63,989 nt of DNA, filler included, from Octopus bimaculoides (GCF_001194135.2; 6 parts of 6 records of this genome joined end to end with filler, not necessarily neighbours in it), one strand, 5' to 3'. Counted from the whole stretch's first letter, positions 4,932-51,263 are shown. Numbers and translations are program-made. The notes: generated by a model not told the origin, from the sequence alone.

Positions 4932-5503
4932 TTCTCTCCTCCGCTTGAAATATATATCGAGTGCAGAGTGCACTGAACAACTAGCTGGAAGAGGCGTCCT
5001 CCTGGGGTTAAAATAGCAGAATCGTCGGTTCCTAGGGAACACTCGTGTTTAGGCGGCGATAAACACTACTTCTCAATGTAAATACTTCCTTCATGTCTCA
5101 TAGAGATTTTCGTGACTAGCTAGTTTGCTTGGTGCAAGATCACTTCTTTTTCTGTATATTGTGAGCTGCTGTGAATTACTGCTATGACTAGAGGGTGAAT
5201 ATCCATCACTGAAGATGACCATAAAGATGTCGAAACCGTACGGTCTGATGGTCTTGGGGCTAAAATAATAGGGAGTTCTCTCCCCGCTTGCAATATATGT
5301 TGAGTGCAGAGTGCATTGCATAACTGGCTGAGGGAGGTGTCCTTTCCAGCTTAAACTGGCAGTCTCATCGATTCCTAGGGAACACTCGAGTTTAGGGGGC
5401 ATTAAACACTACTTCTCAATATAAATAATGCTTTTCAGATGAAATAATGCTTTCATCTTTTATAAAGATTTTCTTGACTTGCTAATTTGCTTGTTGAAAA
5501 GAT
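4932..5503 (+). mobile_element. Hammerhead-containing element with 343-bp-period direct repeats (retrozyme / Penelope pLTR-like)
   Basis: Copies at 4932-5140 and 5276-5503. GAGTGCAGAGTGCA at 4959/5302 and TTCCTAGGGAACACTCG at 5029/5372 both give a 343-bp period. The hammerhead lies between the copies. Confidence 0.75.
5203..5251 (+). ncRNA. Type I hammerhead ribozyme
   Basis: CCAUCA-CUGAAGA-U-GAC(CAUAAAGAU)GUC-GAA-ACCGUACGGU-C-UGAUGG. Stem I is 6 bp, the core is complete, stem II closes with G-C, stem III is palindromic, and the GUC cleavage triplet ends at 5245. Confidence 0.9.
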
Positions 5504-5539
5504 AGACTATGTTTAGTACGTTAGCGCACACGATCACTG

Positions 5540-5585
<46 letters not shown>

Positions 5586-5867
5586 AACTCGCACAGACAC
5601 GCGCGCGCACACACTGGGCGTTATGTTTCTTATTTGCATGTTATGTTCTTATGAATAAACAAACACGCGGGAAAACTTAGGTTTCAGCTACTGCTGATCC
5701 AGGTCATGTCAGACTTAATAACAACATCTGGGATAGTCTTTTAATTCATGTATGTATATATATGTATGTCTGTATGTATGTATGTATGTATGTATGTATG
5801 TATGTGTGTGTGTGTGTGTGTGTCTGTCTGTATGTATGTATGTATTTATGTATGTATGTAGGTGTGT

Positions 5868-6065
5868 AAATCTAATGGAGGCCTCAAAAGACATTTTAAG
5901 ACCCACAAAGATCAGCTCTTGGTGGTCCAGATTAGATATGCAATTCATGTGGTTGTCTTTTCAATACATTGTCTTGTTTAAAAAGCCACATCAGACGCCA
6001 TGATGGATCTAATGTGTAGGTACAAGAGGTGGTTAGACTATAATGAATAGACAACCACCATGTAC
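5868..6065 (+). mobile_element. Frameshifted C2H2 zinc-finger-coding fragment, probably the 3' end of an RTE-type LINE
   Basis: Translates as VCKSNGGLKRHFKTH and, in another frame, ICNSCGCLFNTLSCLKSHIRRH*. It is followed by a short GTAT-type tail. Confidence 0.5.
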
Positions 6066-6149
6066 GTATGTATTGTTTTTCTCTTCCTCTATAGAGTAAA
6101 TTTTGAGCGACCACCTCCTTGGTAGCAGGGTTGTGAAGGAAAGCATCTT

Positions 6150-6340
6150 GTTTTAACCATCATCCTTTTAATCTTAAGTAAGTCATGCAGATTTCTATAG
6201 TCCCAGATGTCTTGATTATTTGTAATTTATGGATTAAGGATTTCCATTCTCTTCCGAAGATTCCAGGTTCAACCATATTTTGCTCCAGACTGGTTGGCAT
6301 GTATCCTGTTGCTCCAATAACCTATTCTACTCTAGGCAGG
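6150..6340 (-). mobile_element. C-terminal fragment of a restriction-like-endonuclease LINE (R4/Dong/NeSL-like)
   Basis: Minus strand reads VIGATGYMPTSLEQNMVEPG...LIHKLQIIKTSGTIEICMTYLR, resembling the PxIxGAxGxxP...LQ...GT..I C-terminus of such ORFs. Confidence 0.45.
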
Positions 6341-6384
6341 AGGCCTGAAATTTTGGGGGCAGGATGCCAGTCAATTAGATCTCT

Positions 6385-6455
6385 GTCTCTCTGTCTCTCT
6401 GTCTCTATGTCTCTCTCTCTGTCTCTCTCTCTCTCTCTCTGACTCTCCCTCTCTG

Positions 6456-47970: not shown

Positions 47971-48597
47971 GAGATCTATTTTTCTTAACTAATTCTATAT
48001 CTGAAAACATCTGTTAATGAAAAAATATGCAGCAGTTCAGTTTGTGAAGAACTTCAGGAGACACAGACACTCTTCTAAAAGCACTCGACAACAACTGTTT
48101 CTGCTAACATAAACAATATATTTGCATTCCCACAGTGCAGTAAGACATGTTGTTAGAAGATTTAGTTTAAGAAAGTAACACACATCACAAGTACGAGCTT
48201 CTGATTAGTGGTGTCATTATAGTCTAAATGTTTTTACGGATATTTCTATTTAACCAAATCCGTTTGATTGGAACCTCATTTTTTGGAATTGATATCTTAG
48301 ATCTGTAGTTCATCAGGCAGTTATATAAGGGTAGGTACAGTTATAATTTTTTTGGATGTGTTTTGAAGAAGACGGAAGTCTATTTCAAAAAGCTATTACT
48401 GTCGTCACTACGAACGACAAAACATTGAGGGAGTTTACAAAACTGATTCGAGTCAAGACCCCAGCCTGCATAATATTTTGAGAGAAAAAAAAAAGCCCCA
48501 AAACAAAAAACACAAACGCAAAACAAACAAAAACAACAAACAAACCAATACTAAAACCCTTGAAGAACATTTTTGTCGTGTTATTTCATTCATGTCT

Positions 48598-48745
48598 AGT
48601 AATGTAAATCGATTGCAGTAGTTTATCTTATCAACTCTGGAAAGATGAAAGTTAACATCGGCTAGATTTGAATTCAGAAGTGAAGGACTATAATTAAATA
48701 CTGCTAGGAATTTTGTCCCTTGCTTCACCAACAACGATTCCGCCA
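48598..48745 (-). mobile_element. Family-A SINE (degenerate)
   Basis: GGAAAGATGAAAGTTAAC...GATTTGAATTCAGAAG...AACGATTCCGCCA. Confidence 0.6.
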
Positions 48746-48920
48746 TTCCACCCCATTTATTACCAGAGGTAGACGAAATATCGTCTCGCCAGAGCACGAA
48801 GTGCATTTCGGCCTTTTCGGCTTTGTCAATGACGTGTACTCGCAGTCAACATGCCTTGACGGAATTTGTTACCTTCCTTGAATAGAATAGTGCTGATTTT
48901 GTAGTGTTTACATATTTTCC

Positions 48921-49277
48921 GTGGAAGCGCAATGGCCCAGTGGTTAGGGTAGCGGACTCGCGGTTTCGATTCCCAGACCGGGCGTTGTGAGTGTTTATTG
49001 AACGAAAACACCTAAAGCTTCACGAGGCTCCGGTAGGGGATGGTGGCGAACCCTGCTGTATTCTTCCACCACAACTTCTCTTCCTGTTTCTATTGTACCT
49101 GTATTTCAAAGGGCCAGCCTTGTCACACTGTGTCACGCTGAATATCCCCGAGAACTACGTTAAGGGTACACGTGTCTGTGGAGTGCTCAGCCACTTGCAC
49201 GTTAATTTCACGAGCAGGCTGTCCCGTTGATCGGATCAACTGGAACCCTCGACGTCGAAAGCGATGGAGTGCCAACA
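48921..49277 (+). mobile_element. Young family-C SINE with 11-bp TSD
   Basis: tRNA-like head, CAACAA tail, and TSD ACATATTTTCC at 48910-48920 and 49278-49288. Confidence 0.95.
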
Positions 49278-49864
49278 ACATATTTTCCAATGTAAATACT
49301 GTCCTAACCTATTGTGGCGATATTCGTTTGGTGTCAGCACAGGACATTCGAGACGAGATGATCTATTGCTTCGTCAAATGTATCGCAGAATCTGTATTTA
49401 GGGTCAGAACCGTTTTGAAGAACGTTAGCCAGATATTTTTTTTGTGAGCAAGCTTTGATCTTGTGTTGCCAAAATGAAACCTTCAGTTTCTTTCAGTCCT
49501 GAGCTTCTTAACCACTGATGGATTGTTGCTTGATCTACATCAGCATTTCGACTTCTAAGTATATACTGTCCATGCAGAGGCTTCTGGCTTTACCGCTCCT
49601 CAATTTGTTTCTGCCCGTTCTTTTTTGTAGTGTGCTTGACTCATTTTGCCTGTTTTGTGGCAGTGGTTTCAGGTTCTACAGATATTTCAGATAATTCCCT
49701 TGCGAATTTGCAAGCTTCCTTGACAATAGAATGTGATTTTTTTGCTGTTTTTTTGTATTTGCACAGAAGTCGCAGAGTCCAATTCTCTGTTCATTGCTAT
49801 TGTGGAGATTTTATAGAACAGTTCTATCTGCATCATTCCTCTCCTCCATTATTTCTAGGTAGGT

Positions 49865-50261
49865 TGTTTGTGGTTGTTGTTGGCACTCCATCGCTTACGA
49901 CGTCGAGGGTTCCAGTTGATCCGATCAACGGAACAGCCTGCTCGTGAAATTAACGTGCAAGTGGTTGAGCACTCCACAGACACGTGTACCCATAACGTAG
50001 TTCTCGGGGATATTCAGCGTGACACAAAGTGTGACAAGGCTGACCCTTTGAATTACAGGCACAACAGAAACAGGAAGTAAGAGTGAGAGAAAGTTGTGGT
50101 GAAAGAGTATAGCAGGGTTCGCCACCATCCCCTGCGGGAGCCTCGTGGAGCTTTAGGTGTTTTCGCTCAATAAACACTCACAACGCCCGGTCTGGGAATC
50201 GAAACCGCGATCCTACGACCGCGAGTCCGCTACCCTAACCACTGGGCCATTGCGCCTCCAC
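49865..50261 (-). mobile_element. Young family-C SINE with 11-bp TSD
   Basis: Reverse complement of the 48921 copy, with TSD TCTAGGTAGGT at 49854-49864 and 50264-50274. Confidence 0.95.
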
Positions 50262-50832
50262 TCTCTAGGTAGGTACAGACGATCAAAATCTGCTTTTGGT
50301 TGATGCATATTCTTAAAAGTTTGGAGTTTTCTTGTCTTCTTGTCTAGGCGTTGGAGCTCTGTTCGATTCCAGTTAATGATTTAAAAACTTTATTGGAAGT
50401 GCCAAGGTGTTATTGGCTTCGATGCGATGCTTACAGTGTTCGTTTAAGTTAGTAACTAATATGAAAAGTTTGATTCGTTCGATTATGTTCCTTTGTATAA
50501 ATTTGTGGTTTTGTGCCAATATCAGTTATTTTGCTGGTAAATAATTATTTGACGGCGAAACACCGGCAGCAGTAGAGTGTCAGCCTAAAGATATAATATT
50601 CGGTGTTTATTCTTGTAGATTCGAATTTCGACAGTGTATTTTTTTACTTTTCATTCCATCCTTCTGCATTTCCAATATACAGTATTCGATACAGTCGACC
50701 GTACATAGTGCTCCTTCAAAAAACGAAAACAAAAATGGATTTATACTGAGTGGAATATCCATTACATTATCAGAGAAGATTATTTGCGTTGCTGATTTGA
50801 CGTCGATGATGATAATTGTTACGGTCATTTAT

Positions 50833-51263
50833 TGCAATAAAGTAGTTGTATGCTGTCAACTTAATGTGACAGTCCCATGAAGGGAATACTACTACTGCTA
50901 TTTAGCCCTAGGAAGCAGCACCGCTTCCTGTCGGACTTGACACATTTCCTGTGTCCTTATGTTTGAAATCAGTGAATGTGTTTCACTAGAATTATTATAT
51001 GTTTACTAGAGCTTGACAGGCATCTCCAACTAGCAGGCCATTGCTACTCCAGACTGATGACGAGCAAAGGCTCAGAAACATGTCTCTGGATGCAGATTTA
51101 GCTGGGTGAAGGTGCTTGTCTTCCCCCTTGTAATCATAAGGACACAGGAAATGTGTCAAGGCCGACAGGAAGCGGTGCTGCTTCCTAGGGCTAAATAGCA
51201 GTCGTATTATTCCCTTCATGGGACTGTCACATTAAGTTGACAGCATACAACTACTTTATCGCA
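50833..51263. mobile_element. 431-bp foldback element: 129-bp inverted arms around a 173-bp hammerhead-containing spacer
   Basis: Arms 50833-50961 and 51135-51263 are reverse complements with about 4 mismatches. No TSD seen. Confidence 0.9.
51048..51090 (+). ncRNA. Minimal type I hammerhead ribozyme
   Basis: UCCAGA-CUGAUGA-C-GAGC(AAAG)GCUC-A-GAA-ACAUGU-C-UCUGGA. Stem I is 6 bp, stem III is palindromic, and the GUC cleavage triplet ends at 51084. There is an extra C and an extra A flanking stem II. Confidence 0.8.

Follow-up and report, generated by a model that had tools for sequence, protein, structure and literature searches.

The closest described relatives of the element considered here are the animal retrozymes without long terminal repeats (non-LTR retrozymes) and the Penelope-like elements (PLEs). 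We analysed a stretch of 63,989 nt from Octopus bimaculoides (GCF_001194135.2), made of six parts joined with filler and called the window below, which holds repeats of about 350 nt with hammerhead ribozyme motifs; it is rich in gaps and microsatellites and contains 8,763 N. Published non-LTR retrozymes are 170–400 nt long (350–390 nt in mussel), low in GC, tandemly arranged and equipped with a type I hammerhead, and PLEs are strong candidates for their helpers (PMC7229834). No motif in the retrozyme repeats points to the helper (PMC7761336), and in Xenopus retrozymes are tied to the pseudo-long terminal repeats (pLTRs) of PLEs (Li et al., bioRxiv 10.64898/2026.07.22.740005). Insertions of PLEs comprise partial tandems, an adjacent inverted truncated copy, a one-sided tail of 30–40 bp and target-site duplications (TSDs) of 8–10 bp (PMC3846280, PMC8557442), and PLE hammerheads have been described, including pairs on opposite strands (PMC4209133). 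In the Poseidon element PAc of Anolis, two internal start sites of the reverse transcriptase (RT) bound the tail, an AC-rich loop is present and ATT is cleaved on both strands; in vitro the Poseidon ribozyme can be dispensed with, and RNA ends at its cut site were not found (PMC11167929). Penelope families are abundant in cephalopods, in accounts whose available text does not mention ribozymes (PMC13282606, PMC8967140).

It seems probable that five arms found in the window belong to one hammerhead-bearing family with a unit of about 350 nt, a non-LTR retrozyme mobilised in trans by the RT and GIY-YIG endonuclease of a PLE. Both the class of element and the geometry of insertion are already in print, and no new category is involved; what is noteworthy is a full PLE footprint on a monomer that has no open reading frame (ORF), together with a covarying module by which the RT start sites may be set. 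Arguments about the helper of animal retrozymes have so far relied on co-occurrence and shared ribozymes (PMC7229834) and on the likeness to pLTRs in Xenopus (bioRxiv 10.64898/2026.07.22.740005). A family of roughly 10^4 copies with a PLE tail, inversions and TSDs would put a mechanistic footprint in the place of co-occurrence arguments and, if the fuller proposal made below is true, would give direct genomic evidence of how and by whom animal retrozymes are moved, with a cis-acting RNA structure named. In the literature covered we found no description of such a family in octopus, nor of inverted retrozyme insertions; Repbase, Dfam, the O. vulgaris repeat library (PMC13282606) and supplements may hold the family.

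Five homologous arms at three loci

The insertions and their parts are as follows.

4925–4932 (+): candidate left TSD of copies A and B, 8 bp, identical to 5496–5503
4933–5137 (+): copy A, a 5′-truncated partial monomer that starts about 31 nt past the equivalent of the cut site (nhmmer, blastn)
5138–5495 (+): copy B, a whole monomer head-to-tail after A, with an internal duplication of about 19 nt near 5432–5451
5496–5503 (+): candidate right TSD of A and B, the last 5 letters of which also match the unit's own sequence
36850–37015 (+): copy D, a solo 5′-truncated copy between (TA)n stretches, starting about 50 nt past the cut-site equivalent
50830–50839 (+): left TSD of the 51-kb locus, 10 bp, self-complementary, 9 of 10 positions identical to 51311–51320
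50837–50964 (−): Cr, an inverted 5′-truncated arm equivalent to 51132–51259, ending at the short 3′ end of the family
50962–51314 (+): copy C, one full monomer of about 353 nt, ending at the long 3′ end; no PLE-like ORF was seen in it
51260–51314 (+): optional 3′ extension (the tail, 53–58 nt) from the short to the long 3′ end, found only on the direct arm
51311–51320 (+): right TSD of the 51-kb locus, paired with 50830–50839

A profile search assigned five arms at the three loci to one family (A, 4929–5113; B, 5271–5475; D, 36835–37008; C, 51112–51297; and the inverted Cr, 50975–50832). The next match of the five-arm profile in the window had an E value of 0.21, and the reversed window gave none. 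A covariance model of the structured module described below recovered the same five arms and no sixth in the window (next best E 0.35). When pairwise local alignments were compared with 500 dinucleotide shuffles per pair, nine of the ten pairs scored above every shuffle; the exception, B against Cr, was equalled by 43 of 500. The homology claimed from sequence inspection thus holds beyond shuffled controls. Within the module identity falls to 44–49% between C or Cr and A or B, compared with 79% for A against B (191 columns) and 95% for C against Cr; the GC content of the units is 40–45% (42% in copy C).

The sequence-only reading had described the 5-kb and 51-kb loci as homologous downstream of their hammerheads. 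They do belong to one family, but that pair itself is weakly supported: profiles with held-out copies gave E 0.15 for A and B against C and 0.0013 for C and D against B, as compared with 2e-9 for A and B against D, 6e-11 for C and D against A and 7e-8 for C against D. Since A and B reach C only at 0.15, it is copy D at 36.9 kb that bridges the other two loci. Between the two ribozyme-bearing loci, homology exceeds chance in the linker after the cut (3 of 1,000 shuffles as good); it is not significant for the spacer upstream of both ribozymes (75 of 1,000) or for the ribozyme sequences of B and C themselves (101 of 1,000).

The same reading had laid weight on motifs and spacings. The distance from cleavage site to TAAA was reproduced at 107 and 108 nt, as were the TAAA-to-ACTAC values of 56, 56, 58 and 55 nt, but the ACTAC at 36959 behind the last of these is out of register in the alignments; the copy D counterpart of ACTACTT is about 3 nt farther downstream, giving a true spacing of about 58. 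The motif TAAA.T.GCAG as written fits the copies at 5009 and 5352 only and neither the 51-kb nor the 36.9-kb copy. Near-constant spacing is in any case expected of colinear copies and so is no sign of function; covariation counts as the evidence instead.

Copies A and B form a 1.6-mer with a direct-repeat period of 343–344 at 4.9–5.5 kb and no ORF between them. An exact shared 8-mer such as that at their flanks was found in 10 of 3,000 random pairs of 22-nt flanks, and flanks as good as the 10-bp duplication at 51 kb in 3 of 3,000 random 16-nt pairs; for copy D, a target duplication is uninformative within (TA)n. Changes between A and B are not enriched for those that keep pairing (6,076 of 20,000 null runs as good), a pattern as expected for decay after one insertion. 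Separate insertions of A and B as members of two subfamilies were considered and dropped as unneeded; a cluster of B-specific changes at 5330–5352 remains without explanation.

Hammerhead motifs and a covarying module

Two type I hammerhead motifs, corresponding to the hammerheads of the sequence-only reading, were confirmed by a descriptor scan of the window, both with a complete core and a 6-bp stem I; the scan gave one more, weak match on the minus strand at 13855.

5203–5251 (+): type I hammerhead of B, with 6-bp stem I, an extra base before G10.1–C11.1 and a palindromic stem III; predicted cut after 5245
51048–51090 (+): type I hammerhead of C, with 6-bp stem I carrying a 3-nt bulge, and further pairing beyond; predicted cut after 51084
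51141–51294 (+): structured module consisting of hairpin 1, an extended hairpin 2, a closing helix that holds hairpins 3 and 4, and a terminal hairpin

The hammerhead of C has a short stem II with an A-rich loop and a short palindromic stem III. Only B and C of the five arms have a hammerhead; A (5009), D (36904) and the inverted arm are without one. Public sequence data, comprising one raw RNA run (X21) and three contig sets (X3, X10 and X15), 4 of the 24 runs listed, were placed on 50966–51420 at 85% likeness. An AAAG loop on both stems II had been proposed: an A-rich loop II containing AAAGA is common to the two motifs, but they share no tetraloop, and the closed AAAG tetraloop of C needs G51070, where 188 of 191 RNA reads have A (87 of 89 and 101 of 102). 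In stem I of C, variants at the paired positions 51049/51089 and 51053/51085 each occur in about half of the RNA reads, and those on opposite sides have matching frequencies (41/79 with 41/82, and 45/83 with 45/86, in one mate direction and counted per site, not per read). From these two matching double changes, stem I of the hammerhead covaries. The exact ribozyme pattern had no match in metagenome contigs.

Copies C and D, folded separately, have the same topology of minimum free energy, with z scores of −3.8 and −3.2, and within the closing helix lies an unpaired AC-rich stretch at 51246–51256. RNAalifold on a MAFFT alignment predicted 25 pairs, 12 of them with changes on both sides. Comparison of C with D over 32 pairs showed 23 unchanged, one kept with a change on one side, seven kept with changes on both sides and one broken, against 8.9 broken pairs expected; 1 of 20,000 null runs was as good, and for C or D against A or B the figure was 21–79 of 20,000, values that are optimistic given that the helices were chosen by hand and eye. 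The changes between C and D therefore keep pairing, as the proposed covariation check had asked, and together with the double changes of stem I they bear out the idea of one non-autonomous ribozyme family in which the fold is kept as the sequence diverges. As to the promoter role that the sequence-only reading had suggested, the scan found no exact Pol III A or B box, but a control SINE (short interspersed element) had none either.

Monomer joints, 3′ ends and the insertion footprint

Between 50966 and about 51317 the read depth on the 51-kb copy was high; beyond that it dropped to flank level. In X3 the summed contig depth was 4e4–1.7e6 inside the unit as compared with 70.8 in the flank; the family is of the order of 10^4 copies, a rough depth ratio to be read as an order of magnitude only. 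It may make up a sizeable share of the unclassified repeats and fold-back RNA in this genome, and it offers thousands of junctions and a small structured RNA suited to the existing in vitro PLE assay.

Head-to-tail joints from 51314 to 50966 were present in seven contigs of X3, seven of X10, one of X15 and 14 RNA reads of X21, with four more RNA reads joining from 51312. About four letters lie between 51314 and 50966 at the joint, matching 50962–50965 in some contigs. Since these joints occur in DNA contigs, the unit is a tandem-forming monomer of about 353 nt, close to the 343–344 period of A and B. Opposite-strand joints accounted for 9 of the 15 joints listed (of 48 in all), eight of them in X3, with a depth near that of the flank, and one in X10, and every one had different breakpoints. 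Because the breakpoint differs each time, the foldback is a by-product of insertion and not a fixed architecture. The earlier proposal of two architectures, direct tandem and inverted foldback, as a standing property of the family is not supported by these joints, which show head-to-tail tandems in the subfamily of the inverted locus as well.

Clusters of loose ends whose flanks differ from one another were seen behind 51256/51259 and 51312/51314, in three or four of the four runs. The family hence has two fixed 3′ ends, 53–58 nt apart and about 172–175 and 228–230 nt downstream of the predicted cut; at 51 kb the short end terminates the inverted arm and the long end the direct arm. The inverted repeat there (50833–50964 with 51132–51263) spans 132 nt at 96% identity, and Cr and C overlap by three bases at the arm junction (50962–50964). 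The direct arm is one monomer long to within about 2 nt, a single case that fits one trip round a circle. The target is palindromic and has ATT on each strand. The right junction (51285–51418) is present on a contig of X3 and on one of X10 (organism B), so that the insertion may predate the split of the two organisms if the run labels are correct.

We read the family as a retrozyme because it agrees with non-LTR retrozymes (PMC7229834) in size, low GC, tandem habit and the type of its hammerhead, type I. In common with those of metazoans (Cervera and de la Pena 2020, PMC7229834; Li et al., bioRxiv 10.64898/2026.07.22.740005), as far as the available text describes them, it has a protein-free monomer within 170–400 nt and below 45–50% GC, a short palindromic helix III, dispersed monomers beside tandems, a highly paired fold and co-occurrence with PLEs. 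It differs from them in that the window copies have one ribozyme each and abundant circular RNA was not seen in the X21 reads, and also in its inverted insertions, two fixed 3′ ends and tail, none of which that text describes.

We ascribe its movement to a PLE helper because the layout of an inverted 5′-truncated arm, a tail, here a longer one, on one arm and a TSD of 9–10 bp matches that of Pen2a and Pen2 of Adineta (PMC3846280, PMC8557442). Partial direct tandems, an AT-rich target, a hammerhead upstream of the 3′ ends and an AC-rich loop near the end are further features shared with endonuclease-bearing PLEs, Poseidon PAc included (PMC11167929). Unlike these PLEs, the octopus repeats have no ORF between or beside them, and their 3′ ends lie 172–230 nt from the cut site. 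The ribozyme of C has a stem I of canonical size (6 bp) and a short stem II, whereas many PLE motifs have a long stem II.

From this comparison we infer a route by self-cleavage, circularisation, binding of a PLE protein, cDNA starts at both ends and priming from both nicked strands. Tandem copies would be transcribed, and RNA reads crossing the monomer junction were observed. The hammerhead would then cut multimers to monomers, which might be circularised, as in published retrozymes. The multi-helix module would be bound by a PLE protein, and cDNA would start at one of two fixed internal sites, by analogy with the RT starts of Anolis Poseidon. Both strands of the AT-rich target would be nicked by the enzyme. 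Copying from one nick round a circular or multimeric template would give solo, unit-length or 1.6-unit direct copies (D; A with B), and copying from both nicks, with microhomology joining the products at variable points of 5′ truncation, would give a head-to-head foldback with the tail on one arm (Cr with C). The inserted copies would subsequently decay, direct and inverted forms being alternative outcomes of the same integration reaction. The fuller proposal, of a retrozyme lineage with a complete Penelope footprint and no ORF in which the covarying module sets two RT start sites, synthesis makes one or more trips round circular RNA and both nicked strands prime, is put forward tentatively, at somewhat less than an even chance.

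Several observations weigh against a retrozyme moved by a PLE. Only 881 of 12.9 million RNA records were placed, equally in both mate directions, and 81% of them run on into unlike sequence; this pattern looks like read-through rather than abundant monomer, with the proviso that a poly(A) library, if used, would lose circles. No pile of RNA starts or ends was seen in X21 at the predicted cut site or elsewhere, and the 18 RNA junction reads fit circles and tandem transcripts alike. Each locus of the window has at most a single hammerhead, so none of the three shows the two consecutive ribozymes of an active retrozyme, and the tandem joints outside the window are too short to span both ribozymes. 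The Rfam search on the two ribozyme loci gave no hammerhead family match at E≤5, and the folds of A and B are no more stable than shuffles (z +1.2 and −1.0). The tail of 53–58 nt exceeds the 30–40 nt of published PLEs. Finally, the comparison with Neptune-type PLEs, given below, is negative on two counts.

Candidate helper and rival explanations

PLE ORFs, that is candidate helper elements, exist in this genome, and one is represented in the window.

38093–38919 (+): broken ORF fragment of a Neptune-type PLE, with the end of the RT region, a Cys-rich linker and part of the GIY-YIG domain (tblastn E 9e-38 to P0069)

A (TG)n stretch and an assembly gap truncate the fragment, which matches full-length proteins with RT, Cys-rich linker and GIY-YIG. 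The Neptune label is based on this layout (PMC3846280) and on an Atlas cluster in which 40% of members have GIY-YIG. An HMMER search of the full protein library with the broken GIY-YIG piece gave 1,810 proteins at E≤0.001; a word-based search with that piece found none among 24 candidates. Pfam recognised neither the window pieces, with one sub-threshold unrelated match, nor four library proteins, and none of 27 viral contigs held a Neptune relative.

For comparison we used 79 Neptune-like loci from metagenome contigs, drawn from the best 80 of 495 matches. Type I hammerheads with a palindromic stem III, like those of the octopus family, were found in 47 of the 79, mostly on the ORF strand, and in none of the reversed controls. 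A short GCTC...GAGCAC hairpin motif followed within 130 nt downstream in 33 of the 46 Neptune hammerheads with enough flank, sometimes twice; it is a candidate recognition element of Neptune. The octopus module differs from these ends in hosts of other kinds, with no nhmmer match to the 79 loci at E≤5 and a best covariance-model E of 0.51, and the hairpin motif is absent from all four module copies.

The main rival holds that the arms are 5′-truncated pLTR ends left by an autonomous PLE that is not seen here, its ORF being beyond these short insertions, with no separate non-autonomous family; we consider it improbable. The entire insertion footprint is of PLE type, most genomic PLE hammerheads are solo truncated ends, the extra base before G10.1–C11.1 in the ribozyme of B is typical of PLE motifs (PMC4209133), and retrozymes and pLTRs are related in Xenopus (bioRxiv 10.64898/2026.07.22.740005). 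The Neptune-type fragment also follows downstream of D, on the same strand and at a distance of 1,078 nt, but between them are microsatellites and two unrelated repeats, and the module is without the Neptune-associated motif. Among the joints listed, the sequence upstream of the unit start is the unit's own 3′ end, as seen in contigs of both DNA runs and in 18 joint reads of X21, where the first bin has a depth of 59; ORF-linked copies may occur among the many loose ends and joints beyond this list. A with B is a 1.6-mer without an ORF in between. No Neptune-like protein match lies beside the hammerheads: with 149 Neptune-like proteins, the only PLE clade among the queries, an RT and GIY-YIG ORF between pLTRs was sought and matches fell only at 38.1–38.9 kb, none at the 5-kb or 51-kb loci or on their units. 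The sequence-only reading had allowed for the copies proving to be ordinary Penelope pLTRs, and this came out largely so, in that size, ribozyme and footprint match published non-LTR retrozymes and PLE insertions, but no link of a copy to a PLE ORF was found.

Mobilisation of a retrozyme or SINE-like RNA by a long interspersed element (LINE) of RTE, CR1 or R4 type, with the inversions made by twin priming, appears quite unlikely. LINEs were left open as helpers in the available text of PMC7229834, and TSDs of 8–10 bp fit them as well. There are LINE-like remnants in the window, and D lies at the 3′ end of one, a frameshifted RT remnant at about 35890–36815 (+), which we take to resemble the C-terminal part of a CR1/L2-type RT. 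LINE twin priming inverts a 5′ piece without duplicating the 3′ piece; here the 3′ segment is the same on both arms, which stop at two fixed alternative ends. The unit itself has no poly(A) or simple-repeat tail.

A DNA-level element (foldback or miniature inverted-repeat transposable element, MITE, or Helitron-derived) or a satellite that recombination has amplified, in which the hairpins would act on single-stranded DNA, is very unlikely: the 132-bp inverted arms with a TSD do resemble a MITE and the minus strands fold comparably (for C better, z −5.6 against −3.8 for the plus strand), but inversion breakpoints vary between loci, the arms are unequal, the copies are 5′-truncated with fixed 3′ ends, and conservation of the hammerhead core and stems, with matching double changes, is on the plus strand.

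Apart from the retrozyme-like family and the Neptune fragment, the window holds other repeats. Two dispersed families of 200–450 nt are abundant and probably SINEs, one at 7505–7687, 17478–17929, 31693–32006, 39275–39631, 46793–47437 and 63011–63200, the other at 73–306, 4551–4723, 28238–28521, 37601–37831 and 56464–56653. A further repeat occurs at 48921–49280 (+) and 49875–50261 (−), 89% identical and in opposite orientation, giving an apparent inverted repeat of 157 bp, with a third partial copy at 35235–35416; from its tRNA-like head we assume it to be a SINE. Decayed coding remnants at 29010–29498 (−) and 53599–54213 (−), neither with a meaningful Pfam match, are presumably of R4/Dong-type LINE and pogo/Tigger-type transposase origin, respectively. 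Across the whole window, Rfam gave only microsatellite-driven microRNA matches among the 150 of 222 listed. A near-identical 250-nt duplication spanning an N gap at 726–1654 is likely an assembly overlap, and imperfect palindromes of 60–320 nt, unrelated to the module, lie at 53117–53437, 45726–45856, 33066–33129 and 47025–47086.

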